From Woeseiaceae bacterium (GTDB lineage: Bacteria; Pseudomonadota; Gammaproteobacteria; Steroidobacterales; Woeseiaceae): DNA of 64,000 nucleotides. Positions 26,194 through 40,016 of the stretch are shown here, one piece after another. The DNA lies in contig OZ246981.1 of the NCBI GenBank assembly GCA_965232455.1, positions 3,963,911 to 4,027,910 on the forward strand. Reading direction: 5' to 3'. The notes under the pieces were generated by a model, which was not told where the DNA came from, made no database searches, and was given only the letters and a program-made list of their open reading frames with translations. Position 1 is the stretch's first letter. The number at the start of each line of letters is the position of its first letter. The position numbers and the translations under genes were made by a program.

Positions 26194-26225
26194 TGCCCGG
26201 CGGAACGCTCTTTAACAATGTGGAT

Positions 26226-26302: not shown

Positions 26303-26366
26303 GCGTATGCGCCTGCCCCAACGTGCTGACGTGGATCGACCGCGCGTTTGCCCGAGTCCGGTTCAC

Positions 26367-26603: not shown

Positions 26604-26604
26604 C

Positions 26605-26678
26605 GAGTCCTCGATCTGGGGCCAAGGCTCTGTGGTGAAATGGGATCACATGCCCCTGTCACGGGCAATTCCGGGGAT
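26605..26678 (+). tRNA. tRNA-Asp(GTC)
   Basis: Acceptor GGCTCTG/TAGAGCC, D GTGA..TCAC, anticodon arm TGCCC-CTGTCAC-GGGCA, T-loop ATCGAAA, CCA. Confidence 0.75.
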
Positions 26679-26684
26679 CGAAAC

Positions 26685-26755
26685 CCCGTAGAGCCGCCAA
26701 ACAACTGTCCGGGTACGGGGTACAGCCGGTCCTTACAAGACCAGCTTGCTGAGTT
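26685..26755 (+). tRNA. tRNA-Val(TAC)
   Basis: Acceptor TGTCCGG/ACGGACA, anticodon loop CTTACAA, T-arm CTGAG-TTCGAGT-CTCAG, CCA. Confidence 0.55.
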
Positions 26756-26762
26756 CGAGTCT

Positions 26763-26848
26763 CAGACGGACAACCAGGTCTATGCGGGTGTGGCGGAAGC
26801 AGGCAGACGCGCCGGGTTCAGATTCCGGTGTCTCATGACGTGTGGTTT
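26763..26848 (+). tRNA. tRNA-Leu(CAG), class II
   Basis: Acceptor GCGGGTG/CACCCGT with G1:U72. Anticodon arm CCGGG-TTCAGAT-TCCGG, variable-arm hairpin GTC-TCAT-GAC, 86 nt, CCA. Confidence 0.55.
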
Positions 26849-26852
26849 CGAG

Positions 26853-26928
26853 GCCCTCCACCCGTACCAGATTGGGGGGTGCTCAAGGGTAAGCTGGTTT
26901 CCCTTGCAAGGAGACTGTATGCGCGGAG
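26853..26928 (+). tRNA. tRNA-Ala(TGC)
   Basis: Acceptor GGGGGGT/ATCCTCC with the G3:U70 identity pair. Anticodon loop CTTGCAA, T-arm CGCGG-AGCGTTA-CCGCG, CCA. Confidence 0.7.
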
Positions 26929-26934
26929 CGTTAC

Positions 26935-27066
26935 CGCGATCCTCCACCAGATGCTGCGGCCGTCGTTTAAAGGCCAGGACAACGGTTGTTGATTCGCGGC
27001 TTCGCCGCTCACCTTTCACGCGTACTCGCTGACGCTCGTACGCCTGTTGGACGATTATGCCGGGTT
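26935..27066 (+). tRNA. tRNA-like gene with about 55-nt internal insertion (identity unresolved)
   Basis: Acceptor GCGGCCG/TGGCCGT with two G:U pairs, T-arm CCGGG-TTCAAGT-CCCGC, CCA. The 132-nt length implies an intervening segment. Confidence 0.35.
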
Positions 27067-27067
27067 C

Positions 27068-27144
27068 AAGTCCCGCTGGCCGTACCACGCTCCTATCGTC
27101 TAGTCGGACCAGGACACCACTCTTTCAAGGTGGAGACCGGGGAT
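27068..27144 (+). tRNA. tRNA-Glu(TTC)
   Basis: Close match to the canonical tRNA-Glu body (GTCTAG..GGAC, CTTTCAA). T-loop variant ATCGTAG, CCA. Confidence 0.8.
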
Positions 27145-27150
27145 CGTAGC

Positions 27151-27219
27151 CCCGTAGGAGTACCAGACAATGTTGAGGTAGCCGAGGAGGCATTTGGACT
27201 GTGACCCCGACTCAGCGGT
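27151..27219 (+). tRNA. tRNA-His-like (GTG), atypical
   Basis: Anticodon loop CTGTGAC. Ambiguous 3' end, no G-1, one acceptor mismatch. Confidence 0.35.
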
Positions 27220-27220
27220 T

Positions 27221-27290
27221 CGAGTCCGCGCCTCACCCCACGATGCGGAGCTGGGAGTACACGCAGGCTGCAACCCTCCGTTCGACGGTT
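27221..27290 (+). tRNA. tRNA-Cys(GCA)
   Basis: Perfect acceptor GATGCGG/CCGCATC, anticodon loop CTGCAAC, T-arm GACGG-TTCGAGT-CCGTC, CCA, 70 nt. Confidence 0.55.
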
Positions 27291-27292
27291 CG

Positions 27293-27356
27293 AGTCCGTC
27301 CCGCATCTCCAACTCTCTGTAGCGTAATTTGGTGACCCGCCCGCAGGGTGAGCGCA
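27293..27356 (+). other. Stand-alone copy of the structured module flanked by a 7-bp terminal stem
   Basis: TCTCTGT...CCCGCAGGGTGAGCGCAGCGAATC...GCAGAGA. Same core as the T-loop inserts. Confidence 0.3.
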
Positions 27357-27367
27357 GCGAATCACTC

Positions 27368-27443
27368 CTGCCGCAGAGACCGGATAACTGCGCTGTAGCT
27401 CAACGGTCAGAGCATCCGTCTGATACACGGGAGGCAGGTGGTT
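27368..27443 (+). tRNA. tRNA-Ile(GAT)
   Basis: D GCTC-AACGGTCA-GAGC, anticodon arm TCCGT-CTGATAC-ACGGG, T GGTGG-TTCGACT-CCACT, CCA. U1:G72. Confidence 0.75.
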
Positions 27444-27444
27444 C

Positions 27445-27515
27445 GACTCCACTCAGCGCGACCACGCTTCGACTGTTAGTGCAGTCCCGTCGTTGCCATC
27501 GACCGGTGCCGGGTG
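27445..27515 (+). tRNA. tRNA-Gly(GCC)
   Basis: Perfect acceptor GCTTCGA/TCGAAGC, anticodon loop TTGCCAT, T-arm CCGGG-TGCGATT-CCCGG, CCA. Confidence 0.6.
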
Positions 27516-27516
27516 C

Positions 27517-27588
27517 GATTCCCGGTCGAAGCTCCACGCCCGACAAGCATTAACGGTGATGCACCGGCTTTGTAACCCGGAGAACGGG
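27517..27588 (+). tRNA. tRNA, probable Thr(TGT); no encoded CCA
   Basis: Acceptor GCCCGAC/GTTGGGC, T-loop ATCGTTA. The anticodon stem is imperfect. Confidence 0.35.
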
Positions 27589-27597
27589 GATCGTTAC

Positions 27598-27673
27598 CTC
27601 GGTTGGGCACAATACGATCGCGCAGTAGCTCAACGGTCAGAGCGGCACCCTCATAAGGTGCGAGGTGCGGGTT
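27598..27673 (+). tRNA. tRNA-Met(CAT)
   Basis: Anticodon arm GCACC-CTCATAA-GGTGC, T GCGGG-TTCAACT-CCCGC, CCA. C1:U72 mismatch. Confidence 0.75.
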
Positions 27674-27676
27674 CAA

Positions 27677-27819
27677 CTCCCGCCTGCGCTACCAGATACG
27701 GTGACCAACCGGATCGGAGTCTTCCCTGCGAAGGAAGACCGTGCAGGTTGGAACGCAAGCTTCGCTCGCTCACCGCCGCTATGCGGCGGTGTCTGTCGCA
27801 GCGCGTTGTGCTGCTCGGC
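27677..27819 (+). tRNA. tRNA-Arg(GCG) with 72-nt T-loop insert
   Basis: Acceptor ACGGTGA/TCGCCGT, anticodon arm TCTTCC-CTGCGAA-GGAAGA, T-stem GCAGG/CCTGC. The insert contains hairpin CCGCCGC-TAT-GCGGCGG. Confidence 0.5.
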
Positions 27820-27820
27820 T

Positions 27821-27893
27821 GAGTCCTGCTCGCCGTGCCAAACCCTCTCCGGTGGACCCGGTGGCGGCGCTTCGAACGCTGCTTAAGGAAGTT
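27821..27893 (+). tRNA. tRNA-Arg(TCG)
   Basis: Perfect acceptor ACCCTCT/AGAGGGT, anticodon loop CTTCGAA, T GGAAG-TTCGATT-CTTTC, CCA. Confidence 0.6.
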
Positions 27894-28173
27894 CGATTCT
27901 TTCAGAGGGTGCCAGATTCAAGGTGCTTCCTATCGAAGCCGGGCCACCAGACCCGTCGCAGATGCTGGGAGACGTAAGTCCGGGGGTGAAATACCCCTGA
28001 TTACTGAAGGCTGCGCTGTTTGGACAGCAAGCAGTCTTGAACCGCGACCGGCATAGTCGGCCGACAGAAGTACGAGCGTCAGCGAGCACGCCCGAAGGGT
28101 GAGCGGCGCTGCCGCGAATCAAAACTGGGCCGGTGGCAACGCCGATGTAGCTGAGAAGGATTAGCGCCGAGTT
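27894..28173 (+). other. Unresolved tRNA-like/structured block containing another module copy (28060-28125)
   Basis: Multiple hairpins (CCGGGGGTGAAATACCCCTG, TCGGCCGA). Module core CCCGAAGGGTGAGCGGCGCTGCCGCGAATC. No canonical cloverleaf recovered by eye. Confidence 0.3.
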
Positions 28174-28250
28174 GTAGCCGAGGCATCCTGACAATCCTCC
28201 GTAGCTCAAGCGGGCAGAGCACCGGGCTTTTAACCTGTGAGATGTCGGAT
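28174..28250 (+). tRNA. tRNA-Lys(TTT)
   Basis: Acceptor TCCTCCG/CGGGGGA, anticodon loop CTTTTAA, T-arm GTCGG-ATCGTGG-CCGAC, CCA. Confidence 0.7.
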
Positions 28251-28255
28251 CGTGG

Positions 28256-28345
28256 CCGACCGGGGGAACCAGACACGGAAGGTAAACCGGACAGGCGTGC
28301 CGGAGGCGGTTGCTACCCTACCTGATCGCTCACGCGGTTGTGATT
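28256..28345 (+). tRNA. Class II tRNA, probable Ser(GCT)
   Basis: Acceptor GGAAGGT/GCCTTCC, 90 nt, T-loop TTCGAGT, CCA. The anticodon stem is imperfect. Confidence 0.4.
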
Positions 28346-28351
28346 CGAGTT

Positions 28352-28422
28352 CACTGCCTTCCTCCAAACGCCACCTCGTGTGCTGGGCATAGACGAGATT
28401 CCAAACCTTGTCGTGTTGGGTT
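28352..28422 (+). tRNA. tRNA, probable Trp(CCA)
   Basis: Acceptor ACCTCGT/ACGGGGT, loop TTCCAAA, T TTGGG-TTCGATT-CCTGA, CCA. Confidence 0.4.
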
Positions 28423-28428
28423 CGATTC

Positions 28429-28499
28429 CTGAACGGGGTGCCAACCAATCGCGGTGTGTACAGGGTACCGACCGGATTCTGAGTCCGTGAGCGAGAGTT
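28429..28499 (+). tRNA. tRNA-Gln(CTG)
   Basis: Acceptor CGCGGTG/CACCGCT with a C1:U72 mismatch. Anticodon loop TTCTGAG, T GAGAG-TTCGAAT-CTTTC, CCA. Confidence 0.5.
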
Positions 28500-28654
28500 C
28501 GAATCTTTCCACCGCTACCAACCGGATGCGTCGAGATCAGGGATCGGAAGAGGCTTTGACCCTTGGAGATACGGTTCGAGTCCGTACGGCGCTGCCATGC
28601 TCCACTAGCCCAACCGGCGGAAGTGTCGGACTTAAACACCGTCAGGTCTAGGTT
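28500..28654 (+). other. Two tRNA-like units, unresolved
   Basis: Complete T-arms TACGG-TTCGAGT-CCGTA and GTCTA-GGTTCGAT-TAGAC, each followed by ...CCA. No matching 5' acceptor strands were found. Confidence 0.3.
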
Positions 28655-29019
28655 CGATTAGACGATGGCGTACCAGCTCTCGGTTTTTATCAAATTCAAG
28701 GTCATCGACTTCGGTCGGGGCCTCGTTTAGCGGCCTGGCGCTGCTAACCGTCGGCGACGGCGGGAAAGGAATGCAGCACTGCATTTCGCCGAGCCATTGC
28801 GCTCGGTCAATCCAGGCAAGTCCGGCCTCCCGAGTTCTCGATACGTCGGGAATAGCGGCGAAGTGATGCGGATGACTCGCATCGTTAGTCGTGAGGGGCA
28901 ACGGATAGTGCAGGTGTGCGAGCTTCGCAAACAAGTGCGCTTGTGCAGAAATCCGGGGAGTCGGCGTGCAGCCGACGTCCTGGCTTTCCGTCTAGTAGCC
29001 GGCGGGTGAAAGACATTCG

Positions 29020-29046
29020 GCAAGTGGCCGCCTCGCGGCCACTTGC
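29020..29046 (+). promoter_or_regulatory. Perfect 12-bp hairpin (GCAAGTGGCCGC-CTC-GCGGCCACTTGC) just upstream of tRNA-Asp
   Basis: No T-tract. Candidate processing or structural element. Confidence 0.35.
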
Positions 29047-29054
29047 CACCCCCC

Positions 29055-29129
29055 GCTGCGGTAGCTCAATGGCAGAGCGTCGGATTGTCGATCCGGAAGA
29101 TGTCGGTTCAAACCCGATCCGCAGCGCCA
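29055..29129 (+). tRNA. tRNA-Asp(GTC), second copy
   Basis: Perfect acceptor GCTGCGG/CCGCAGC, D GCTC..GAGC, loop TTGTCGA, T GTCGG-TTCAAAC-CCGAT, CCA. Confidence 0.7.
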
Positions 29130-29202
29130 CACTTGCGAGTGTGTGCTACTCGCGAATTTATCGTCGCGAAGCGACCCTTCTCAACCTGTCTTCGGAGGCA
29201 TT

Positions 29203-29430
29203 ATGAATATCAAGGACATCGTGAAAGACAATACCGTTCGATTCGTCCGGTATCGCCAGGGGGTCGCTTACTACGGCGTCAGCGTACCCACCGAAGGCGA
29301 CTACATCTTTCCCGTTCCGCTCGAGGATATTGGGGACGCCACCCTCGAGCTCGAAGACAAAGCGATCCTGTTCATGCGCTACATCCGACGCGCAATCGGA
29401 GAAGGGTCGTTCGTTCCTCTGGCGTCGTAA
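29203..29430 (+). CDS. Small hypothetical protein (75 aa) embedded in the tRNA array
   Basis: GGAGG RBS 6 nt before the ATG. Clean ORF MNIKDIVKDNTVRFVRYRQGVAYYGVSVP... No recognisable similarity. Confidence 0.4.
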   Translation: MNIKDIVKDNTVRFVRYRQGVAYYGVSVPTEGDYIFPVPLEDIGDATLELEDKAILFMRYIRRAIGEGSFVPLAS

Positions 29431-29437
29431 CTTTTGT

Positions 29438-29513
29438 AGACCGGTAGCTCAGGAAGAAGAGCGCGCGACTGATATTCGCGAGGTCGGCTGTGCAACTCAG
29501 CCTCGGTCTACCA
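29438..29513 (+). tRNA. tRNA-Ile(GAT), second copy
   Basis: Acceptor AGACCGG/TCGGTCT, perfect anticodon arm CGCGA-CTGATAT-TCGCG, atypical T-loop TGCAACT, CCA followed by a T-run. Confidence 0.7.
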
Positions 29514-29519
29514 TTTTTT

Positions 29520-29731
29520 CTGGGAGTAGCTCAGGCTGGTCAGAGTACTCGGTTTGGACCCCAATTTGCCCACGTTGCCGAAAGAACGAAACGGATCGGT
29601 GCAAATTGATCTTTAGTGGAATATGCGGCAGTGCGCTTCCACTCGACCCACTAAAGATCAATCCGCATCCACCCTCTACTTTCTTTGGAAGCACTAGGGC
29701 GGATTGGGTTCGAATCCAGCCTTCCAGACCA
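29520..29731 (+). tRNA. tRNA-like gene interrupted by about 140 nt, including a 15-bp inverted repeat and the CTAAAGATCAATCCGCA element
   Basis: Acceptor CTGGGAG/CTTCCAG plus CCA. Canonical 5' D-arm GCTC-AGGCTGGTCA-GAGT. Internal IR ATTGATCTTTAGTGG...CCACTAAAGATCAAT. 3' GGGTTCGAATCC. Confidence 0.35.
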
Positions 29732-29740
29732 AATTCGAAG

Positions 29741-29971
29741 GGAGACTCGCAAGGTCGGCGTGCTTATCCGGTTTGATCCGAGGAGCGCGCAGCGCGACGA
29801 CAGACGCACGCAGTGCGCCCGCAGGGTGAGCGGCGCAGCCGCGAATCCACCCGGTGATGTCCTCACGGGCGTGGGGGTTCAACCGAGGCGCGTAGCGCCG
29901 ACAGACGGATTCGCGAAGCGAATGCCGCCCGAAGGGCGAGCGCAGCGAGTCCATCCCCTCAGTCTCCTCCA
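29741..29971 (+). tRNA. tRNA-like gene with two module insertions
   Basis: Acceptor GGAGACT/AGTCTCC plus CCA, T-stem GGGGG/CCCTC. Module copies at about 29795-29860 and 29882-29950 (cores CCCGCAGGGTGAGCGGCGCAGCCGCGAATCC and CCCGAAGGGCGAGCGCAGCGAGTC). Confidence 0.35.
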
Positions 29972-29980
29972 AAAGACGAT

Positions 29981-30056
29981 GGTGAGCCTAGCTTAACGGC
30001 AAAGCCCCAGGCCGTGACCCTGGTTGATACCGGTTCAAGTCCGGTGGTTCACCCCA
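29981..30056 (+). tRNA. tRNA-His(GTG)
   Basis: Encoded G-1 opposite C73. Acceptor GTGAGCC/GGTTCAC, perfect anticodon arm CCAGG-CCGTGAC-CCTGG, T ACCGG-TTCAAGT-CCGGT, CCA. Confidence 0.75.
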
Positions 30057-30060
30057 AATT

Positions 30061-30184
30061 GGAGAAGTGGCCGAGTGGCTTAAGGCGCTCGTTAGCTAAA
30101 CTAGAGGGGCGCTGTGTTCCACCCAGGTTCGCACCGAGGAGCGTAGCGACGACAGGCCGAAGGCCCATCCTGGCTTCTCCTCCA
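30061..30184 (+). tRNA. Class II (Leu/Ser-type) tRNA with 34-nt insert in the T-loop
   Basis: Perfect acceptor GGAGAAG/CTTCTCC, class II D-arm GCCGAGTGGCTTAAGGC, T-stem CCAGG/CCTGG. T-loop TTCG-[CACCGAGGAGCGTAGCGACGACAGGCCGAAGGCC]-CAT, CCA. Confidence 0.45.
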
Positions 30185-30188
30185 ACAT

Positions 30189-30328
30189 CCGCCTGTAGCT
30201 CAGAAGGAGCAGAGCAGCTTGTTTGACTCGCTTCGTTCACCCTGCGGACGCACTGCGTGCTTCTGTTGGCGCTTTGCGCCTCGGTGCGAACCAGCAGGCC
30301 GGGGGTTCAAGTCCCTCCAGGCGCTCCA
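30189..30328 (+). tRNA. tRNA-like gene with about 65-nt insertion between anticodon region and T-arm
   Basis: D GCTC-AGAAGGAGC-AGAGC, T GGGGG-TTCAAGT-CCCTC, acceptor CCGCCTG/CAGGCGC with a 1:72 mismatch, CCA. Confidence 0.35.
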
Positions 30329-30332
30329 CTTT

Positions 30333-30406
30333 CCGCTCTTGGCATAGTGGCTGTGCACCTGGCTTTTACCCAGGTGACGGGAGTTCGATTCTCTCAGGGC
30401 GGACCA
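30333..30406 (+). tRNA. tRNA-Lys(TTT), second copy
   Basis: Acceptor CCGCTCT/AGGGCGG, perfect anticodon arm CCTGG-CTTTTAC-CCAGG, T GGGAG-TTCGATT-CTCTC, CCA. Confidence 0.7.
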
Positions 30407-30414
30407 CACAACAT

Positions 30415-30487
30415 GCGGGCATAGCTCAACTGGCAGAGCGCGACGGTGCCAATGTCGAGGTTGTGGACTCGGTCTCCACTGCCCGCT
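30415..30487 (+). tRNA. tRNA-Gly(GCC), second copy (no encoded CCA)
   Basis: Perfect acceptor GCGGGCA/TGCCCGC, D GCTC-AACTGGCA-GAGC, loop GTGCCAA, atypical T-loop CTCGGTC. Confidence 0.65.
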
Positions 30488-30629
30488 CCCAGTCCGCCCA
30501 CGGGGTTGCGTTACTCGGCAACGGCCATTGCGGACTGACATTTATTGCGCTAAAGATCAATCCGCATCAACCATTCTTCCACATTCATCATCGAGGGCGG
30601 ATTGGGTTCGATCCCGGCCCTCTCGACCA
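30488..30629 (+). other. tRNA-like unit carrying the second repeat family (CTAAAGATCAATCCGCA...GGGCGGATTGGGTTCGATCCC)
   Basis: 8-bp stem CAATCCGC/GCGGATTG encloses a variable loop. Ends ...GGCCCTCTCGACCA. Confidence 0.3.
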
Positions 30630-30632
30630 TAT

Positions 30633-30709
30633 TGTCCGATAGCTCAGCAGGGCAGAGCACCGCTCTTACAGAGCGGAGGTCGTCGGTTCGATTCCGACTC
30701 GGATTACCA
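30633..30709 (+). tRNA. tRNA-Val(TAC), second copy
   Basis: D GCTC-AGCAGGGC-AGAGC, perfect anticodon arm CCGCT-CTTACAG-AGCGG, T GTCGG-TTCGATT-CCGAC, CCA. 1:72 mismatch. Confidence 0.55.
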
Positions 30710-30710
30710 G

Positions 30711-30818
30711 GGTTGGGCCAGCGCGCGGCGTTCAGCGGTTCGGGTTCTGATCCCGTCTGGCGCACTCACGCTCCCATCGCACGGTGTGTACCGAGCGAAC
30801 CGTTAGCACTCAACCACC
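30711..30818 (+). other. tRNA-like unit, unresolved
   Basis: Acceptor candidate GGTTGGG/CTCAACC. Internal hairpins. Ends CCACCCA. Confidence 0.25.
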
Positions 30819-30820
30819 CA

Positions 30821-30892
30821 GGGAAATTAGCTCAGTGGGTAGAGCATCAGACCTCTAATCTGAAGTCGCAAGTTCGAATCTTGCATTTCCGC
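30821..30892 (+). tRNA. tRNA-Arg(TCT)
   Basis: D GCTC-AGTGGGT-AGAGC, perfect anticodon arm TCAGA-CCTCTAA-TCTGA, T GCAAG-TTCGAAT-CTTGC. No CCA. Confidence 0.6.
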
Positions 30893-30950
30893 AAATGCCC
30901 TGAAACGGCATCTTGGCAAGGCTTAGGCCCGCGGTTCGAGTCCGCTCCCG
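30893..30950 (+). pseudogene. Truncated tRNA (3' portion only) marking the distal end of the main array
   Basis: GGCCCGCGG-TTCGAGT-CCGC followed by an acceptor-like strand. No matching 5' half. Confidence 0.3.
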
Positions 30951-31429
30951 GGTGAGGATATCGCCCTCCCCGTGTCCGCTGTTAGCAAAGACGTTCGACC
31001 GCCCGAAAGGACGCCAGAGCTGTCCGAGCAGCACGACTGTCGCCGATCAGTGATCCGCCGCGTCGGTCCAGCGGGTCGTCCACGTCGTTTCCGCCTGACA
31101 CTTGTGAATGCTTTGGCGATCACGGGAAAAGGTCGACACCGCGTGCACGATTCGCCCGATCGGCCGGCGCCACCGGTCCGCAGCACTCCTGTGACAGCGG
31201 CCACACATATTCATCCGTCCTGGTCGCAAATGGCGAGGACTCTTTTAACCATAGGTAATAGACGATAAAGGAGGTGATCCAAGTGGCTGGTCTCAGTCGA
31301 CTGGCAGAAGTAGAGCGACGCATTCATGCGCGCAGGACCAGTCATCAGGCGACCGGACCAGCGCGAACACCGCGTCCAAAAAAACGCCCGTCTTTTGACG
31401 GAAACATCAACGAAGAAGGAGAACGCACT

Positions 31430-32572
31430 ATGTGGTTCATGCAAAAATTCATCGTGCGCAAGCACGAACGCGGTCTCCTGTTTAAGGACGGAGACTTCAT
31501 CAAGTTCCTGGAAGCAGGAACTTATCGCTACTTTGGCCTGCGCAGCCGCTACGCGGTAGAGCGTTTCGACCTGTCGGTCGCCGCGTTCGAGCACCGCCTG
31601 GCCGACTACCTGGTCGAGGCTGAACGCGCCGAGGTCGATCGTCTGTTTCACGTCGTTGAGACCCATGCCGACGAAGTCGCGCTGGTCTACCTCAACGAAC
31701 GTGCCGCAGCGATTCTCGGCCCGGCGGAGCGCAAGCTCTACTGGAAAGGCGTGGTTAAAGTTCGCATCGAACGCTTCGACCTCAATGAGGGCATCGCGCT
31801 GGATGCACGCCTGACCAAGCGCCTCGTCAACGGCCGCGATGCACAAGTGCTTGCGGTTGCGGGCAAGGCCGTCTACGCCCGCGTCGTTCCGGACGGTCAT
31901 GTTGGCCTGCTGTACGTTGACGGTGAACTCGCCGAAACCCTGGCGGCCGGCCTGCACGCCTACTGGAACGTTGCCCACGCCGTTGGCGTGGAGCTTGTGG
32001 ACCTGCGCGTCAAGGCACTGGAGGTTCAGGGCCAGGAAATCCTGACCAAGGACAAAGTGGCGCTGCGTATCAACGTGACCGCTACCTACCAGTACGTCGA
32101 CGCGGCGAAAGCCGTTCGCGCGGTCAAGGACCCGCTGGATCAGCTGTACAAAGAGATCCAGTTCGGTCTGCGCGCGGCGGTCGGTACCCGCAAGCTGGAC
32201 GCGCTGCTCGAGGATAAAACCGCAATCGACCGCGACATCGCGGATCACCTCGGCAAGCGTTTCGCTGAGATCGGCCTCAGCGTGATCAGCGTAGGCGTGA
32301 AAGACATCATCCTGCCCGGCGACATGAAGGACCTGCTGGGCAAGGTGGTGGAAGCCGAAAAAGCGGCACAAGCGAACGTCATTCGCCGCCGCGAAGAGAC
32401 CAACGCAACCCGATCACTTCTGAACACCGCAAAAGTGATGGAAAGCAACACCGTTGCGCTGCGTCTCAAGGAACTCGAGACCCTGGAGAAGGTTACTGAA
32501 AACGTCGGTAACCTGTCTGTCGTTGGTGGTCTCGACGGACTGCTGAATGGACTGGTGAACATCAAACAGTGA
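31430..32572 (+). CDS. SPFH/band-7 (slipin-like) domain protein
   Basis: GAAGGAGAA RBS before ATG 31430. Band-7 core and C-terminal coiled-coil typical of slipin/HflKC-like proteins. The longer six-frame ORF is trimmed. Confidence 0.65.
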   Translation: MWFMQKFIVRKHERGLLFKDGDFIKFLEAGTYRYFGLRSRYAVERFDLSVAAFEHRLADYLVEAERAEVDRLFHVVETHADEVALVYLNERAAAILGPAERKLYWKGVVKVRIERFDLNEGIALDARLTKRLVNGRDAQVLAVAGKAVYARVVPDGHVGLLYVDGELAETLAAGLHAYWNVAHAVGVELVDLRVKALEVQGQEILTKDKVALRINVTATYQYVDAAKAVRAVKDPLDQLYKEIQFGLRAAVGTRKLDALLEDKTAIDRDIADHLGKRFAEIGLSVISVGVKDIILPGDMKDLLGKVVEAEKAAQANVIRRREETNATRSLLNTAKVMESNTVALRLKELETLEKVTENVGNLSVVGGLDGLLNGLVNIKQ

Positions 32573-32581
32573 TTCGGCACC

Positions 32582-32619
32582 GGGAGGGTGTGCAACGCAC
32601 CCTCCCAACTTTTTCTACA
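32582..32619 (+). terminator. Rho-independent terminator
   Basis: 9-bp stem GGGAGGGTG/CACCCTCCC with a 7-nt loop, followed by AACTTTTT. Confidence 0.6.
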
Positions 32620-32628
32620 CGGCTGTAG

Positions 32629-32768
32629 CTCAGTGGACAGAGCGCGACTATGCGAAGGTCGAGGTCACAGGTTCACAAAACGCGCCAGCGATTTGGACGC
32701 ACATAGTGCGCCCCGAAGGGGCGAGAGTCGCCCATAGGCGATTCGAGTCAATCTTGTCAGCCGTACCA
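32629..32768 (+). tRNA. tRNA-Arg(GCG) with 66-nt module in the T-loop
   Basis: Perfect acceptor ACGGCTG/CAGCCGT, D GCTC-AGTGGACA-GAGC, anticodon arm CGACT-ATGCGAA-GGTCG. T-stem ACAGG/CTTGT with the loop split as TTCA-[66 nt]-AAT, CCA. Confidence 0.5.
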
Positions 32769-32776
32769 AACATTGA

Positions 32777-32903
32777 TCGGCGCTCGTCCAACGGCAGGAT
32801 GCGAGACTTTGAATCTCGAGATCGCGGTTCGCACCGAGGCGCGTAGCGCCGACAGACGCACGAAGTGCGCCCGCAGAGCAAGCGAAGCGAGTCAATCCAC
32901 GGC
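32777..32903 (+). tRNA. tRNA-Gln(TTG) with 56-nt module in the T-loop
   Basis: Acceptor TCGGCGC/GCGCCGG, perfect anticodon arm CGAGA-CTTTGAA-TCTCG. T-loop TTCG-[CACCGAGGCGCGTAGCGCC...GCGAGTC]-AAT, CCA. Confidence 0.5.
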
Positions 32904-33085
32904 GCCGGGCCAAATTCGTCCGCGTTGTTAATCGAGGATCCGATGGACAGCACGGATTTGTCTTTAGTGGTTTACGTGTAAGTGCGTCGGCGCCACTACC
33001 ACGAAAGTCGAAACAACCCCTGGGTCAGTCGTCTGACGGTAAGACGGCGGATTCGAGCGCCAAGGAACGAACTGCTAAAGAAACA

Positions 33086-33478
33086 TCATGGCTTAAATGT
33101 GACTACCAAAACGATCACCGTCACAAGCACCAATCCTAGTGGCAAGAGAAAATGCCCAATTGCCTCTGGATCGGTTGCTCCTGATGTGGAGCGGCGCAGC
33201 TTTCCTGCCAACACGCCGTGTAATCCAGACAGAATCAACACCAGAGGGATCTTTATCGCTAGCCAGGACTGTGCGAACCAGCCCCCCTGAACCGCGAGCA
33301 GGATGCCGAATACCCAGGCAGCCACCATAGCAGGCGACGTTATGATCCGATCATAAGTCTTCAGCTGTTTCAAGAACGATAGGACGGGGTGTCTCAAGGA
33401 TAGGGCCACAGCCACCATGCCACCGATCCACACAAACAACGACACCAAGTGTGCGGCTTTAGTGAGTGCATAAATCAT
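33086..33478 (-). CDS. Small multi-TM membrane protein (CopD/HemJ-like)
   Basis: Four predicted TM helices. Start overlaps the upstream stop by 4 nt. Confidence 0.35.
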   Translation of the reverse strand: MIYALTKAAHLVSLFVWIGGMVAVALSLRHPVLSFLKQLKTYDRIITSPAMVAAWVFGILLAVQGGWFAQSWLAIKIPLVLILSGLHGVLAGKLRRSTSGATDPEAIGHFLLPLGLVLVTVIVLVVTFKP

Positions 33479-33771
33479 TGTTGCGTGGATGCCTCCGTAC
33501 TTCGACCGCGTAGCCATCGTTCATTGACGAAACCGCCCATTGGAATCAGGGCACCGACGAACAATCGGAAGGCCCCTATTCCGTTGATTAGTCCCTCTGC
33601 CCAAGATCGCACAACAAACCAGAGGAACACCATGAACATCAGTCCATGCACTGGTCCCACAACGGAGACCACCCATGGATCTCCGACGATGTACTTGATC
33701 GGCATCGCGACGCAGAAAAGCGCTAACAGCGTCACAGCCTCAGCTAACGCTGCGCGCCGAAGACCCGTCAT
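33475..33771 (-). CDS. Small membrane protein (DUF3817-like)
   Basis: Two to three hydrophobic helices. No recognisable similarity. Confidence 0.35.
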   Translation of the reverse strand: MTGLRRAALAEAVTLLALFCVAMPIKYIVGDPWVVSVVGPVHGLMFMVFLWFVVRSWAEGLINGIGAFRLFVGALIPMGGFVNERWLRGRSTEASTQQ

Positions 33772-34000
33772 AGCGTGGTGCTAACTCCAAGCTTCGTTGT
33801 CAACTAAAAAACCTCGCGACATCGAATTCCCCGGGGTACAACCAATACCAACTCGCCACGTAGAGCGCTGAGAAAACTACGATTGAAATCGCGATCAGGA
33901 GACGGCGTTCTATAGCATTCATACTGGAAATAATGCTGGACATCGGATATGGCGTAAATGACAATGTTCCGACAATATCGGCCATAATCTCCTGGAGACA

Positions 34001-34999
34001 ATGAAGAAAGCAGCAGCTAATGCGAGGCGAGGCGTCCATCGGCGTGTCGTGTTTGTCGCATTTCCTCACGTTGTTCTGCTGGATCTGATTGGCCCGTGGG
34101 AAGTGTTCTCCCTAGCGAACAAACTCGCCGATAGAGATTCGCCACCGTACGATTTGGAACTGGTGAGCGGCGCTAATTCTGCGAAGATTCCCTCCGGCGG
34201 TGGGATTTCATTGGAAAGTCACCGACCGGCGAAGAACTGCCGGGGAGCTATCGATACGCTGATCGTTCCGGCGACTGATTGGGCGCGGGCCTCAGAGGCG
34301 CAACAATTCTCGTCCGTCTTACAGCGGCTGGCACAGCGGTCTCATCGTATCGTTTCAATCTGCGGCGGTGCTTTTCTCCTGGCAGAGGCTGGACTCCTTG
34401 ATGGCAAGAAAGCAACGACGCATTGGCGTGGAACTGAAGATTTGGCCACACGCTTTCCAAAGGTCGACGTTCAAGCCGACTCAATTTTTGTGAAGGACGG
34501 AAATACCTATACGTCTGCTGGTGTTACCGCAGGTATAGACCTTGCCCTAGCGCTTGTCGAAGAGGATCTTGGACAGGCAGTAGCACTGGATTGCGCCCGT
34601 AACCTGGTCGTTTTCATGCGTCGCCCGGGCGGACAGTCACAATTCAGCGCCACTTTGGAATCGCAACATGCTGAACGGGACGTCATCAACGAGTTGGTAG
34701 CGTGGGCCGCCGATAACCTCGGCAATGACCTTTCCGTTCAGGTACTGGCTGAGCGCGCTCACATGAGCCTACGCAACTTCTCTCGTGTTTTTCGAGCTGA
34801 GGTTGGTCAAACGCCTGCCGCATTCGTCGAAAAGCTGCGAGTGGACGCGACGCGGCAACGCCTCGAAGAGACGGACGAATCAATCGATGAGATCTCCAAG
34901 CACTGCGGCTTTCGCAGCGCAGACTCGATGAGGCGTTCATTTCAACGCGTCGTGAAAGTAGCTCCCAGTGACTACCGTCAACGGTTCCGCAGGCTTTGA
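34001..34999 (+). CDS. GlxA-family transcriptional regulator (DJ-1/PfpI domain plus AraC-type HTH)
   Basis: DJ-1-like N-terminus (SICGGAFLLAEAGLLDG) and C-terminal AraC HTH. Confidence 0.8.
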   Translation: MKKAAANARRGVHRRVVFVAFPHVVLLDLIGPWEVFSLANKLADRDSPPYDLELVSGANSAKIPSGGGISLESHRPAKNCRGAIDTLIVPATDWARASEAQQFSSVLQRLAQRSHRIVSICGGAFLLAEAGLLDGKKATTHWRGTEDLATRFPKVDVQADSIFVKDGNTYTSAGVTAGIDLALALVEEDLGQAVALDCARNLVVFMRRPGGQSQFSATLESQHAERDVINELVAWAADNLGNDLSVQVLAERAHMSLRNFSRVFRAEVGQTPAAFVEKLRVDATRQRLEETDESIDEISKHCGFRSADSMRRSFQRVVKVAPSDYRQRFRRL

Positions 35000-35111
35000 C
35001 ACCTTCATGCCCCTACTCCACGCCATACCGTCGGAGTTGTCGTCCCAGTGGGTTAATCCGAACCAAGGCTAGAAATCGCGACAATCATAAGATTGCCGAA
35101 ACGGCAAACTT

Positions 35112-35186
35112 ATTCCTGAATCGGCAGACAAAAGCACCGAGCTTCTAACTCGGGGATTGCAGGTTCAACTCCTGCCGGGGGTACCA
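35112..35186 (+). tRNA. tRNA-Arg(TCT)-like, weak acceptor
   Basis: Perfect anticodon arm CCGAG-CTTCTAA-CTCGG and T-arm GCAGG-TTCAACT-CCTGC plus CCA. The 5' acceptor ATTCCTG pairs only through three G:U wobbles. Confidence 0.35.
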
Positions 35187-35194
35187 AATACCAT

Positions 35195-35273
35195 GGCCGT
35201 CTGACGGGAATTAGGCATACCTACCTGTCTTAGAAACAGGTGTTTCTCGGTTCGACTCCGAGGGCGGCTACCA
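35195..35273 (+). tRNA. tRNA with anticodon TAG (Leu-reading) but a short variable arm
   Basis: Acceptor GGCCGTC/GGCGGCT, 6-bp anticodon stem ACCTGT-CTTAGAA-ACAGGT, T CTCGG-TTCGACT-CCGAG, CCA. Confidence 0.5.
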
Positions 35274-35278
35274 ACAAC

Positions 35279-35390
35279 GCGGATCGTGGTAGTGGCTGCG
35301 GTGCAGCGACCAGCAGCGCACTAAAGATCAATCCGCACCGGCCTTGTCCGCATTGTTCGGCAAAATTGGGCGGATTGGGGGCTGCGCACC
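35279..35390 (+). other. Third copy of the CTAAAGATCAATCCGCA...GGGCGGATTGGGG repeat element ending in GCTGCGCACCA
   Basis: 8-bp stem CAATCCGC/GCGGATTG with a different loop. tRNA-like 3' tail. Confidence 0.3.
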
Positions 35391-35635
35391 AAATCAGGGC
35401 ACGTTGGCAAATGGATGCCGCCACCTAAAACGTAGGCCGCAGGTGGTCCGGATAACACCGGTCGTTGTCTAAGAGGTCGGGAGGGTATGGTTGAGGATGC
35501 AGGCGACTGCTCTGCGTAAGGGTTACTCGCTGGCGCGCGTTTTCCAACAACCGATCTGCCGGTAGTAATGCCCCGGTTACAACGGTATGCGGGTTCGATA
35601 CCCGTCGTGTCCACCACAAAACTGCACGATCCACA

Positions 35636-36220
35636 TTGTCACCGCGAGAAATGACGATGAGAATTCTAAAACTGGATGTAGGCGGACGACCGATCGCGTG
35701 GATTACACGCGAGGACGGCGCTTTGCTGTACTGCCGCGAGCAGGTTGCGTGGGAGGCCGGCGTTGAAGAGATCGTTCTTCGTGGTGGCTACTCACAGCGC
35801 ACTGGTCTTCGGTCAGTCCTGCGCGTGAATTCGATCGTCGCTACGACTTCGGTAGACAAAGGTGCAGATGACTGGGCCGGTACTCCGGCCCTGACCAACC
35901 CGCGCCTGTTCCGTCGAGACGACTACATGTGTCTCTACTGCGGCGAGGTGCTGCCACCACGACTACTCACTCGTGACCACGTGGTTCCCGTATTTTCGGG
36001 TGGCCGCGACGATTGGGGGAACGTTGTGACGGCGTGCCGTCCCTGCAATCACAGGAAAGACAACCATGCGCTGGAAACAATCGGAATGCGACTGCTCGCC
36101 GTGCCCTACGCACCGAATCGTGCGGAAGGCCTGATTCTGGAAAACCGCCGCATTCTGGCGGACCAGATGGAGTTTCTGCGATCGCGCGTCGGCTCAGGCA
36201 GCCGGCTGCGTGTACCATGA
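35636..36220 (+). CDS. HNH endonuclease
   Basis: C-terminal HNH motif YCGEVL...DHVVPVFSGGRDDWGNVVTACRPCNHRK. Confidence 0.65.
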   Translation: MSPREMTMRILKLDVGGRPIAWITREDGALLYCREQVAWEAGVEEIVLRGGYSQRTGLRSVLRVNSIVATTSVDKGADDWAGTPALTNPRLFRRDDYMCLYCGEVLPPRLLTRDHVVPVFSGGRDDWGNVVTACRPCNHRKDNHALETIGMRLLAVPYAPNRAEGLILENRRILADQMEFLRSRVGSGSRLRVP

Positions 36221-36238
36221 CTTTGGAAGGACAAGACA

Positions 36239-37648
36239 ATGTCATATTTGCACGAAGTACAAAAAGTCTCGGACGCACATTACGTGCTGCCAAAGATCGG
36301 CGACATGCGTACCGAGGTTCACGCGTACCTGTCCGAGACGCTGTTTGCGCAGACCGATGAGGCGCTCTGGCGTCAGGCGGCTCAGGCCGCGGCTTACCCG
36401 GGCATGATTGGCCTGTACCTGATGCCGGATACCCACCTGGGCTACGGGATCCCCGTGGGCGGCGTTGCCGTGACGGAAGACGTCATTATCCAGGCCGGCA
36501 GCGGCTACGACATCTCATGCGGCGTCGTATACCTGCGGGTGCCTGGCCTGACGGCCGCCGACATCGCCGACTGGGACAAGCGCAAGTGCTGGATCGATGA
36601 CGTCGAACTCCGCATCGCAACCGGAATCGGTAGCGACCGGCCGAAGCACATGCCGCGCCTGTCGGAGTCGAAGATCGAAGACATCTTTCGCTATGGCGCG
36701 AAGGCGGTCGGCGTGCGCGCGGACGTCTGCGAGCGGCAGTACATCGACGTGGACGACTCGGTGCTGGATACCGAGCGTGTACAGCGTGCCCGCGACAAGG
36801 CCTGCCCGCAGATCGGTTCGGTCGGCGGCGGCAACCATTTCGTCGAGATGCAGGTTGACGTCAACGACGGTTCGGTGTGGGTGATGATTCACTGTGGAAG
36901 CCGTGGTTACGGCTGGCAAACTGCGAACCATTACTTCTACGCCGGCGCGGAACTGCGCGGCCTGGCAAAGAACCGTCGGGAAGAATCGTGGCTGCGCGCC
37001 GACGAGCCTCTGGGGCGGGAGTACTGGGCGCATCACAATTCCGCGGCGAACTATGCGGTCGCAAACCGCCACATAATCGTGCGCGGCGTGCAGAAAGCGC
37101 TGGAAAACGTCTTTAAGGCAACGGGTGAGGTTTTCTACGAAATCTCGCACAACCTGGTGCAGGAAGAGACGCTGGTGCTGCCGGACGGCACGACCAAGAA
37201 AGGATTCGTACACCGCAAGGGCGCGACGCGTGCATTCCCGGCAGGGCATCCCGACCTGGTTGGAACCAAGTGGGAGGGGACGGGACACCCGTGCCTGGTT
37301 CCCGGTTCGATGCTGGACGGCGCCGCCATCCTGTATCCGTTGGAAGGGGCATACCAGTCGGGTTGCTCGGTGAACCACGGTTCGGGCCGTGTCATGGCGC
37401 GCGGTAGGGCGAAGCGTGAATTGGCAGAGATTCACGACGACATCGACGCCGAGATGCGCGACATCACCCGTACGTTGGGCGGTGTGGAGGTTCGAGGAAT
37501 CGTAGGCAACACGGAGCGGACTCCGCTCGACGAGTGTGGTCACGTCTACAAGGACCTCGATGAAGTGCTCTGCGTGCTGGAAGCGGAAGGAATCGCGAAA
37601 ATCGCTCACCGGATGTATCCGGTGGCGAACATCAAGGGCACCGACTGA
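36239..37648 (+). CDS. rtcB: RNA-splicing ligase RtcB (3'-phosphate/5'-hydroxyl RNA ligase)
   Basis: PDTHLGYGIPVGGV, GGGNHFVEMQ and the C-terminal HNH/GSGR-type His-rich motifs characteristic of RtcB. 469 aa. Confidence 0.85.
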   Translation: MSYLHEVQKVSDAHYVLPKIGDMRTEVHAYLSETLFAQTDEALWRQAAQAAAYPGMIGLYLMPDTHLGYGIPVGGVAVTEDVIIQAGSGYDISCGVVYLRVPGLTAADIADWDKRKCWIDDVELRIATGIGSDRPKHMPRLSESKIEDIFRYGAKAVGVRADVCERQYIDVDDSVLDTERVQRARDKACPQIGSVGGGNHFVEMQVDVNDGSVWVMIHCGSRGYGWQTANHYFYAGAELRGLAKNRREESWLRADEPLGREYWAHHNSAANYAVANRHIIVRGVQKALENVFKATGEVFYEISHNLVQEETLVLPDGTTKKGFVHRKGATRAFPAGHPDLVGTKWEGTGHPCLVPGSMLDGAAILYPLEGAYQSGCSVNHGSGRVMARGRAKRELAEIHDDIDAEMRDITRTLGGVEVRGIVGNTERTPLDECGHVYKDLDEVLCVLEAEGIAKIAHRMYPVANIKGTD

Positions 37649-37674
37649 GGTGCCCTCTCTTTTGAGAAACGATC

Positions 37675-38598
37675 ATGAAACGGTCGGAAGCCCTGGAGAT
37701 AATAGAATGCTTGCCAAAAGGTAAGACTCCATTCTATTACTTCAAGGACCGGTACGCGTTCCTGCTGCTCAACACCGTGGTCGATCGCGCAAAGACCAAG
37801 AGCGAGCTTGCGCGTTCACGATTCGCCAAGTTGTTAACCAAACCCATCGTCAAAGACACAATCGCCCAGTACGGTCGCGGAACCGTAACACCCGACGTCC
37901 TTTGTGCCTATTGGCCGCTTGATGCCGAGTGCTACTTTCTCACTCTCGATATCTGGGGATCAAACAACCGGTGGAACGACCAGACAACTCGCCGCGGGCA
38001 CAATTTAGTGCTTCAGCTAAATTTCTCGAATAAACACGATGCAGAATATCGGCGGCTTATCGAACCGAGCGGAAAACATCCATTCGAGTACCGGGGGCAC
38101 CCCATATCCAGAGGCAGGCGTCGCACACTGGCCTGGGCGAGATTGGACATCGATTTGGCCAGCGGCGAAGCGTTGGTAGAGGAGGTTCAGACAGATTGGG
38201 TTCGATACGCGCTCCGTGCCCGGCGGATAGCAGCTCGTCGTGGACAGGTTAGGTACGGAGATGGAGCTACGATATCGAAAGATCGAATCACTCAATACGT
38301 CGACAGCGTATTGATGCCGCACGTGCGGCTGTGGGATGAGGCGATTCTTGCGGCAACGATCTGGTTTCTACGTGAGGAGTTGGGCATCAACACGATCTAT
38401 TATCACACGCACGAGTCGGGGGCGTTGTTGAAAAAGATTTCGTATACGCTGCCGCCGCGCTCACTCTATACGAAACTCCCACGTAAATTCTGTTTTTCTC
38501 AATCGGGTGAGCGTCCCGATTTCTTGCCGAAGAAGGCGAAGACCGCGGATTCGAGGAAACTGCTGGAAAAGGCTAAATTCCATGTAATGACCTGGTAG
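37675..38598 (+). CDS. Hypothetical protein (307 aa) co-oriented with HNH-RtcB
   Basis: No recognisable motif. Basic patches and conserved His/Glu (YYHTHESG). Confidence 0.4.
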   Translation: MKRSEALEIIECLPKGKTPFYYFKDRYAFLLLNTVVDRAKTKSELARSRFAKLLTKPIVKDTIAQYGRGTVTPDVLCAYWPLDAECYFLTLDIWGSNNRWNDQTTRRGHNLVLQLNFSNKHDAEYRRLIEPSGKHPFEYRGHPISRGRRRTLAWARLDIDLASGEALVEEVQTDWVRYALRARRIAARRGQVRYGDGATISKDRITQYVDSVLMPHVRLWDEAILAATIWFLREELGINTIYYHTHESGALLKKISYTLPPRSLYTKLPRKFCFSQSGERPDFLPKKAKTADSRKLLEKAKFHVMTW

Positions 38599-38783
38599 TG
38601 CTGATTGCTTGATGGCCGGCGAGAAGCAACTGTTTCTGATCATTCGCAAACGACATTCAGGATCTTGCCAGATTGAGAAAAGGAGAGGCGACACGCGGTT
38701 TTTAGTTTAGTTGCGGAATCTCCTTGAGAACTCTGGCTTGGCTTCGTTATTCTTTCCCCCAGCTCATTTCTACGCCGAATTCG

Positions 38784-40016
38784 CTACCAGACCTCTCGAA
38801 TCAGCCTCAGGAAATTCTTGCCGAGTATCTTCTCGATCCTGGCGCTCGAATGGCCACGCCTAGCGAGCATCTCGGCCAGCTTTTGAAATTGCGTGGGCCC
38901 CATTAAATCCGGGATAAGCGGAACAACCTGGTCCGTTTCGCCTGCGGCGCCAATACCGGCCTGACGCCGCTGCCTTACTTCTTCGGCGATTGCGGCGCGA
39001 TACATTGACATATCGTCAATTGCGGTAGCGTCTCCATCAGTGCCAATGCCGACGTGCTCTTCACCACAGACGTTGACGGCATGTTCAATATGCCGAATTA
39101 CGTCGGCTGCTCGAGCTTGTCCGTCGTGCCGCAGAAACGGCATGAAGTAGATTCCAACGACACCGCCTTTTTCCGCTACCAGGCGCATTTCCTCGTCGGT
39201 CTTGTTCCTTGGTATGTCGACCAACGCACGGCAACCGGTATGGGAGATCGTAATCGGAACATTGGCGGATTTGACCGCATCAAGACAGGTGTTCTCACCG
39301 CTGTGACTAAGATCTATCAGAACTCTATTGTCGCTGAGCGCTTCGATGAGCTCAAAGCCGAACGGAGTCAACCCCTTGTTTTCCGCGACCGAGCTCCCGT
39401 CGCCAATTTGATTTCGACCGTTATACGTCAACTGAATGATTCTCACCCCGAGATTGGAAAAGGTGCTGACGCGTTCCAGTCTATTGCCGACGCTTCTTGC
39501 ATTTTGAAAGCCGAAAACAATACCTATCTTGTCTTCTTCTTTTGCTCTTAGGATGTCGTTGACGGTCCAGACCTTGAGAAGGTCTTCAGGATGCCGCCGA
39601 ATCAGGGCGTTCCATCTCGCAATATCGTCAATCGTGTATTCGTAAGGCTCTTCCGGACCGGCTACGTAACCAAGGGTCACATTGATTGCGGTTACGTCAG
39701 AATCACGAGTATCGCGAATGGCGCGGCTATCGATGTTACGGACACGGGCCAGAGTTGCGTTTGCAATATTCTCAACTCCCTGCCCCGATTGCCGGGCCCA
39801 GAGATTCTGATTGGATATTCCTCCCAGGGCATTGAAGACGATCAAATCCTCAATACGCATCTCTCCATCAGCCGCGTTCAAGGGAATCGGCACCATGGCA
39901 AATGGCGATGCAACGAGTCCTGCCGAACTCATCTGCACGAAACTACGTCGCGATAATTTTTGTTTCATGTCGCTCACCATTTGCAGCTCTGACGGGTTGT
40001 GGCTTTTCTTGTGCAA
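38784..40016 (-). CDS. Membrane dipeptidase (peptidase M19, renal dipeptidase family)
   Basis: Tat-like signal SRRSFVQMSSAGL. M19 core motifs. Confidence 0.7.
   Translation of the reverse strand: MHKKSHNPSELQMVSDMKQKLSRRSFVQMSSAGLVASPFAMVPIPLNAADGEMRIEDLIVFNALGGISNQNLWARQSGQGVENIANATLARVRNIDSRAIRDTRDSDVTAINVTLGYVAGPEEPYEYTIDDIARWNALIRRHPEDLLKVWTVNDILRAKEEDKIGIVFGFQNARSVGNRLERVSTFSNLGVRIIQLTYNGRNQIGDGSSVAENKGLTPFGFELIEALSDNRVLIDLSHSGENTCLDAVKSANVPITISHTGCRALVDIPRNKTDEEMRLVAEKGGVVGIYFMPFLRHDGQARAADVIRHIEHAVNVCGEEHVGIGTDGDATAIDDMSMYRAAIAEEVRQRRQAGIGAAGETDQVVPLIPDLMGPTQFQKLAEMLARRGHSSARIEKILGKNFLRLIREVW

Follow-up and report, generated by a model that had tools for sequence, protein, structure and literature searches.

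A stretch of 64,000 nucleotides from the chromosome of a Woeseiaceae bacterium (assembly GCA_965232455.1, contig OZ246981.1, positions 3,963,911 to 4,027,910; this whole stretch is referred to as the window) contains a long tRNA gene array followed by three open reading frames (ORFs) that encode an HNH endonuclease, an RtcB RNA ligase and a protein of no known family, named U307 here. With moderate confidence, this triad is read as the protein-coding tail of a conserved, single-strand tRNA-array island which serves the recovery from damage to the translation apparatus. A shared function of the island is supported by the recurring synteny, the intact active-site motifs of RtcB and the co-regulation of a comparable gene set in Anabaena. 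Since L-arrays (long tRNA arrays) accompanied by HNH and rtcB genes have been reported before, the link with HNH for cyanobacteria and mycobacteria alike, the locus belongs to a known type; it is the gammaproteobacterial version of an L-array with HNH and RtcB. Genuinely new are the family of U307 and its association with RtcB, PrfH and factors of the 30S subunit. The parts of the island are listed with the means of their identification in brackets:

26372-30960, plus strand: first block of the tRNA array, with 18 tRNAs found by ARAGORN, interrupted or degenerate tRNA-like genes and a 75-aa ORF (ARAGORN, Rfam, sequence reading)
31274-32572, plus strand: SPFH/Band-7 (slipin-like) gene within the array (PF01145, 2e-27)
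32619-32912, plus strand: two module-bearing tRNA genes, Arg-GCG-like (32619-32768) and Gln-UUG-like (32777-32912)
35112-35273, plus strand: two tRNA-like genes upstream of the triad (Rfam tRNA, ARAGORN)
35397-35617, plus strand: tRNA-like RNA of ~220 nt (nhmmer, RNAalifold)
35636-36220, plus strand: zinc-finger HNH endonuclease with a probable start at 35654 or 35660 (Pfam)
36239-37648, plus strand: RtcB 3'-phosphate/5'-OH RNA ligase of the long, archaeal-like type (PF01139)
37635-37656, plus strand: terminator-like hairpin over the RtcB stop codon (consensus scan)
37675-38598, plus strand: U307, family of ~300 aa with a GNAT-like fold (homologues, AlphaFold model, neighbourhoods)

The three ORFs are separated by gaps of 18 and 26 nt, and Pfam searches and an ORF check bore out the gene identities and positions given in the initial annotation, all on the plus strand. 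The order of tRNAs, Band-7 gene, tRNAs, HNH, RtcB and U307 on one strand was found again in the loci L005, L009, L012 and L013 of Woeseiaceae-like Gammaproteobacteria (L-numbers denote the related loci compared), and it is permuted in L016, L004, L098 and L099. RtcB is missing from the islands L014, L018 and L020, HNH from L015, L027 and L038, and in the islands L036, L050, L060 and L067 an RtcB of ~400 aa (27-29% identity) substitutes for the long type. Between the window and L009, HNH, RtcB and the Band-7 protein are 89-91% identical and U307 54%; because of this lower identity, U307 appears to act as a more exchangeable cassette than its island neighbours. The SPFH/Band-7 gene, whose product carries an N-terminal extension of ~200 aa, lies between tRNA blocks in 19 related loci. 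Downstream of the island an M19 dipeptidase gene follows, as in L004 and L005, which marks a conserved chromosomal position, and an AraC/DJ-1 regulator gene flanks the triad on the other side. The base composition of the island is ordinary, and neither an integrase nor a transposase was found in the flanks tested. The tie between the triad and tRNA arrays, whose conservation the initial annotation had marked as worth checking, stands in part: the triad recurs with tRNA arrays in relatives, and the complete HNH-RtcB-U307 set was seen only in array islands, whereas RtcB-U307 pairs are common where no array exists and the HNH protein has the features of a DNA nuclease.

The RtcB protein matches PF01139 over the full length of the profile (positions 1-426 of 426; 296 bits against a cut-off of 27; 6e-88) and aligns end to end with RtcB of Pyrococcus horikoshii (1e-54). 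Its motifs GYDISCG, GGGNHF, HCGSRG, ISHN and NHGSGR match the metal-binding and guanylylation motifs of the archaeal enzyme, whose metal ligands and guanylylated histidine are D95, C98, H203, H234, H329 and H404. Judged by these motifs, the active site is intact, and ligase activity is predicted. The protein is not the PrfH-linked RtcB2, since its scores lie far under the curated cut-offs (TIGR03073, 88.7 against 271.8 bits; PRK09588, 116.9 against 407), and the operon contains no PrfH gene. Likewise, no RtcA cyclase and no sigma-54 activator RtcR adjoin it as in RtcBA-RtcR operons; the earlier statement that archease and RtcR are absent held for the neighbouring genes tested. A metagenome scan anchored on the RtcB of the window yielded 80 loci. 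Relatives of at least 85% identity usually have HNH directly upstream and are accompanied by tRNAs and Band-7, and relatives of 64-84% identity nearly all stand alone, so that only one sub-branch of a widespread RtcB clade has been recruited to the island.

The linkage of U307 to RtcB reaches beyond these islands. A genome scan with one genome per species returned 464 U307 loci, the best 80 of which were analysed; these are the relatives closest to the query and not a random sample. Of the 80 species-representative genomes, 34 have an RtcB gene on the same strand as U307 and no more than 1 kb away; for the 68 whose flanks are complete, the number is 27. Three RtcB clades are represented beside U307, namely the long type of the window, the ~400-aa type and RtcB2. 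For the latter, the order RtcB2-PrfH-U307 is usual, with PrfH present at eight loci and U307 as the third gene, and both RtcB2 and PrfH score above their curated cut-offs there. Recurrent neighbours of U307 are further an RbfA-like gene (12 loci), RsmB (10 alphaproteobacterial loci), Band-7 (19), HNH (13) and arrays of at least 10 tRNAs (11 loci). PrfH and the RbfA-like protein are factors of the small ribosomal subunit, and RsmB methylates 16S rRNA. The RbfA-like gene (PF02033) is divergent and lies upstream of RtcB-U307 pairs in genomes without a tRNA array (L066, 3971-4420, and 11 further loci). In the literature searched, no description of a link of U307 with RtcB, PrfH or 30S factors was found.

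A single locus shows another protein in the place of U307: in L091, a canonical GNAT (PF00583; 10057-10500) follows a 24-tRNA array, HNH and RtcB (87% identical), and U307 itself persists in that genome within another array island of smaller size (L015). This GNAT apart, no conserved substitute for U307 was found after closely related RtcB genes. As a single case, the substitution is consistent with the fold assigned to U307.

The HMM searches of the 37675-38598 protein that had been proposed at the outset gave no family match, but the gene is real, as judged by 1333 homologues (E<=1e-3), by 823 representative clusters (50% identity) and by a confident structure model. Pfam, NCBIfam, PADLOC, PHROGs and the PDB sequences contain no match to U307, and a search of the PDB sequences with the family profile gave nothing at E<=10. 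Exact-sequence look-ups of the sequences P0001, P0092 and P0407 returned no record, and no relatives occur in 2.9 million viral contigs. Family members have ~300-330 aa, a few of them with additional basic, K/R-rich N-terminal tails of ~80 residues, and the family alignment contains about 50 invariant positions; E169, E170, Q172, D174 and H244 are invariant residues. The AlphaFold model (mean pLDDT 89, pTM 0.90) contains the GNAT core fold, and a fold search with it returned GNATs alone; beyond this core, the model has an N-terminal domain of ~80 residues and an insertion of ~45 residues. A conserved D...EExQ motif had suggested a PD-(D/E)xK nuclease, which was rejected because the fold search gave only GNATs. 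The motif A of GNATs, Q/RxxGxG/A, is the pyrophosphate-binding loop after beta4. Since this motif is absent, U307 is, on the basis of its model, termed a GNAT-fold protein and not a member of the GNAT superfamily. Nor can a link to the hypothetical Anabaena genes alr0857, alr0739 and all4315 be claimed, as a search seeded with the Acaryochloris homologue P0092 gave no other cyanobacterial member.

The HNH protein matches PF14279 (HNH_5, 3e-13) and PF01844 (7e-11), both above their cut-offs. Its core, CLYCG...DHVVP...GNVVTACRPCNHRK (in another notation CLYCG...DH...N...CRPCNHRK), comprises a CxxC...CxxC zinc finger, the catalytic histidine and two asparagines. As homologues conserve the N-terminus MRILKLD, the true start is suggested to be ATG 35654 or 35660 instead of TTG 35636. 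The closest solved structure is 4H9D (1.4e-13), followed by HNH domains of Cas9 and IscB, and the protein resembles DNA nucleases of the Cas9/IscB/McrA type; its own predicted structure is of low confidence (pLDDT 41). It is 65-90% identical over more than 100 clusters and as conserved as RtcB. A tblastn search of plasmids with HNH gave 81 records, and all five homologues examined, from three phyla, are co-oriented with and lie in or beside arrays of 24-37 tRNAs: Methylibium petroleiphilum (27 tRNAs), Variovorax (33), Burkholderia sp. M701 (37), Anabaena pCC7120delta (24; the published all8564) and M. avium (27, with the HNH gene inside the array). RtcB, U307, Band-7 and T-loop modules are lacking in these five regions.

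Taken together, a division of labour can be proposed for the island. The array would supply replacement tRNAs, as in the work on the Anabaena L-array, and RtcB would reseal tRNA or rRNA that ribotoxins or stress nucleases have cut, at breaks with 2',3'-cyclic-phosphate or 3'-phosphate and 5'-OH ends. U307, for which linkage and an acyltransferase-like (GNAT) fold are observed, would assist the RtcB pathway and probably acts on damaged RNA, the ribosome or ribosomal ligands, not on the array. HNH, whose association with arrays extends across several phyla, probably acts not on RNA but on array DNA, during inheritance, recombination or amplification, in the manner of the free-standing homing endonucleases of phage tRNA clusters. 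The presence or absence of HNH at syntenic islands (absent from L015, L027 and L038, present in L009, L012 and L013) agrees with such an endonuclease, whereas the fast divergence or decay typical of these genes was not found over the >100 clusters. If U307 is indeed an enzyme of the RtcB pathway, it would supply a part that has been missing from bacterial RNA or ribosome repair.

Several observations weigh against this proposal. U307 lies directly downstream in only 2 of the 54 closest RtcB relatives with enough flank, the 80 U307 loci analysed are the nearest of 464 and therefore non-random, and many family members, e.g., in Desulfatibacillum and Desulfopila, stand alone. The Q/RxxGxG/A motif is not conserved in 37 family members and does not occur in the protein of the window, and U307 matches no GNAT HMM of Pfam or NCBIfam, so that an acyl-CoA-dependent activity is not established. 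Moreover, an identity of 89-90% between related genomes is not what a purely selfish homing endonuclease usually shows, which hints at some host function of HNH, and the alignment of HNH with Anabaena all8564 covers the catalytic core alone (residues 84-160, 41.6% identity).

The initial annotation had offered two ideas on the triad, of which the first, a dedicated system for the excision and ligation of modules inserted into the T-loops of the array tRNAs, is not supported. These modules are a hairpin-rich family of ~60-85 nt, composed of chains of GC-rich hairpins after TTCR, which in the window is confined to the array. Eight copies were found, most of them in T-loops:

26447-26528, 28037-28124, 29771-29849, 29876-29959, 32670-32751 and 32826-32904, plus strand: six module copies
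26989-27064 and 30225-30286, minus strand: two module copies

Because most hits of a strict pattern scan for such interrupted tRNAs were false positives due to neighbouring tRNAs, the results rest on nhmmer and on the comparison of orthologues. The Arg-GCG-like and Gln-UUG-like genes each hold one module of ~60-75 nt in the T-loop after TTCR. The reversed module 30225-30286 lies in the palindromic anticodon loop TTTCGAA of a tRNA-Arg(UCG)-like gene, where it occupies the same TTCG^A target on the other strand. The L009 orthologues tRNA-Arg(GCG), tRNA-Gln(UUG) and tRNA-Tyr(GUA) are uninterrupted, with the Arg and Gln genes side by side. Few module copies occur in L008, L013, L016 and L020. Since the L009 orthologues are intact, one reversed copy sits in a palindromic loop and relatives carry few modules or none, insertion took place at the DNA level. 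The findings fit site-specific DNA insertions that invaded this array, not the substrate for which the triad evolved, and the modules look like a non-autonomous mobile element of small size with TTCR^A, the most conserved sequence of tRNA genes, as its target. Such an element would explain the interrupted array in a simple way. No match to a group I intron or a known ribozyme was found with Rfam at E<=0.01 across 24000-40000. At 32667-32761, one module coincides with a match to the Rfam family Aggregatibacter sRNA 22, which stays under the gathering score (33 against 39.8 bits) and is probably a chance similarity to the hairpins.

The splicing reading, in which HNH or some other nuclease would cut the modules out of pre-tRNAs and RtcB would ligate the exons, is therefore judged very improbable, although some features speak for it. 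The exons of the module-bearing genes remain cloverleaf-compatible with encoded CCA ends, the modules sit at a single precise T-loop position, one orthologous module in tRNA-Gly(TCC) has been kept in two species (L016 and L020), and the island itself encodes an RtcB of archaeal type. Against this, relatives that bear the triad (HNH and RtcB of ~90% identity) have no detectable modules in L005, L009 and L012 and two in L013, orthologous tRNAs are uninterrupted, and the two reversed copies of the eight, one of them at TTCG^A of the anticodon loop, indicate DNA-level targeting. In addition, HNH homologues accompany module-free arrays on five plasmids, and RtcB-U307 pairs are common without any array. 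HNH nucleases yield 3'-OH and 5'-phosphate ends, which RtcB cannot join, and a homologue of the EndA/Sen-type endonucleases of archaeal and eukaryal splicing is lacking in the operon, whose only nuclease is HNH. The module-bearing genes could still be functional if some RNase excised the modules so as to leave cyclic-phosphate and 5'-OH ends and RtcB, perhaps with U307, joined the exons, for which the chance is likewise put very low; if true, a bacterium would for the first time show protein-catalysed tRNA splicing, and this at a T-loop position. The second idea, a phage-style tRNA repair kit, fared better in one half: RNA repair tied to tRNA supply fits the context and the stress set of Anabaena, whereas the phage-style part is not supported, given the absence of U307 from the viral contigs and the conserved chromosomal position of the island.

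A related explanation, which is unlikely but the strongest of the rivals, regards the island as cargo of a phage, plasmid or integrative element, in which tRNAs and RtcB defeat the tRNA-cleaving immune or toxin systems of new hosts and HNH drives the spread. Long arrays with the same HNH family do occur on conjugative or mobilisable megaplasmids, the phage T4 endonuclease SegB promotes inheritance and amplification of a tRNA cluster, and arrays are reported to spread horizontally and have been discussed as anti-defence (PMC8421152; PMC5966550). In this clade, however, the island is chromosomal with a fixed place beside the M19 dipeptidase gene, its composition and tested flanks bear no sign of a mobile element, U307 has no viral relative, and the conservation of ~90% for HNH, RtcB and Band-7 among relatives suggests vertical descent under selection. 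Still less probable is that the three genes are adjacent by descent only and act independently. Each of them is dispensable in some islands, U307 even after most close RtcB relatives; U307 has diverged far more than its neighbours, and a terminator-like hairpin lies between RtcB and U307. This hairpin (37635-37656) has an 8-bp stem followed by CTCTTTTG and extends over the stop codon of RtcB; a partial uncoupling of U307 expression from RtcB may result, and terminator-like sites of this sort are no more numerous than in shuffled sequences. A mere neighbourhood is opposed by the tight gaps on a common strand, the recurrence of the set in permuted orders, the substitution of another RtcB clade within the same island, and the adjacency of U307 and RtcB in 43% of genomes across phyla, which is far above chance for one RtcB among thousands of genes.

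The array itself contains further elements. ARAGORN finds 19 tRNAs in the window, all on the plus strand and 18 of them at 26547-30892. The two further tRNA genes just before the triad, correctly noticed in the initial annotation, give Rfam tRNA matches at 35112-35183 and 35196-35269 (32.3 and 32.6 bits against a gathering score of 29), and ARAGORN labels 35195-35273 as Leu-TAG. Short, atypical tRNA-Leu-like units right before HNH were observed in the window (35195-35273), L009 (~7590-7930), L016 (~3360-3680) and L020 (~8860-9340); they have anticodon loops with UAG, UAA, CAA or CAG, an odd D region and no long variable arm. Between the two tRNA-like genes and the HNH gene lies the RNA 35397-35617, with acceptor stem, D- and T-arms, CCA end and a variable arm of ~150 nt. 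According to nhmmer, it is conserved in L005 (7705-7936), L013 (7707-7940) and L015 (13495-13745), directly upstream of HNH in the window, L005 and L013, and RNAalifold gives 67 pairs, 8 of them with compensatory changes. The sole Rfam match for this RNA is a sub-threshold one to tmRNA (11 bits). A second repeat, CTAAAGATCAATCCGCA...GGGCGGATTGGGTTCGA, occurs at 29651-29673, 30550-30572 and 35321-35343 and also in L016 (~3045-3110); it forms a stem right before a T-arm in long tRNA-like genes and is a kind of insertion or extension other than the modules. The 75-aa ORF (29203-29430) has a ribosome-binding site and matches nothing in Pfam; its identity is 82-93% in the arrays of L005, L009, L014, L091 and L092 and 44% in L067. 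The genes at 33086-34999 (UPF0093, DUF3817 and the AraC/DJ-1 regulator), between array and triad, are found in the window only; relatives have tRNAs there.

Among known systems, the fold of U307 recalls the GNAT superfamily, from which the protein differs by the lack of a sequence-level match and of Q/RxxGxG/A and by its extra N-terminal domain and insertion. The T4 homing endonuclease SegB, encoded in a phage tRNA cluster, promotes the inheritance and amplification of that cluster (PMC2330249; PMC13096335) and shares with HNH the embedding of a nuclease gene among tRNA genes, but SegB is a GIY-YIG enzyme, and HNH, for which DNA cleavage is predicted, is far more conserved than usual selfish endonucleases. 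RtcB2-PrfH is a rescue-and-repair operon of two genes for which no third gene was mentioned (Tian et al. 2022, PMC9304027). Both it and the locus of the window combine an RtcB ligase with a translation-related partner, and U307 relatives are the third gene in eight genomes; the window differs in that its RtcB is not RtcB2 and PrfH is absent. In mycobacterial tRNA arrays of genomes, plasmids and phages, HNH is the most widespread protein gene, and ribosome-rescue genes are also present (Morgado and Vicente 2018, PMC5966550). The HNH protein inside the 27-tRNA array of the M. avium plasmid has ~31% identity to that of the window over two thirds of the protein, and unlike the window this region has neither RtcB nor U307.

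The closest parallel is found in Anabaena PCC 7120. Cyanobacterial L-arrays have a conserved HNH gene upstream, which is induced along with them (Santamaria-Gomez et al. 2021, PMC8421152), other cyanobacteria show a neighbourhood link of rtcB (PMC8421152; PMC10272220), and in the TrcR translational-stress regulon the tRNA operon, HNH, rtcB, the slipin alr0740 and two GNATs are de-repressed together (PMC8421152; PMC10272220). Like the Anabaena L-array, with about 20 or more supernumerary, co-oriented tRNAs and an adjacent HNH gene, the array of the window holds 19 ARAGORN tRNAs besides the interrupted ones within ~9 kb of a single strand, with encoded CCA ends, an adjoining HNH gene and rtcB in the neighbourhood. 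The regulon of Anabaena is scattered over the genome, whereas the genes of the window are contiguous in a gammaproteobacterial chromosome, and among cyanobacteria a close relative of U307 occurs in Acaryochloris thomasi only. What the window adds to these systems is threefold: the T-loop modules as an apparent small mobile element, a GNAT-fold family of about 800 sequence clusters that occurs beside RtcB of three clades, PrfH, RbfA-like proteins and RsmB, and the union of array, SPFH protein, HNH, RtcB and U307 in one contiguous, conserved island of marine Gammaproteobacteria which mirrors the Anabaena set.

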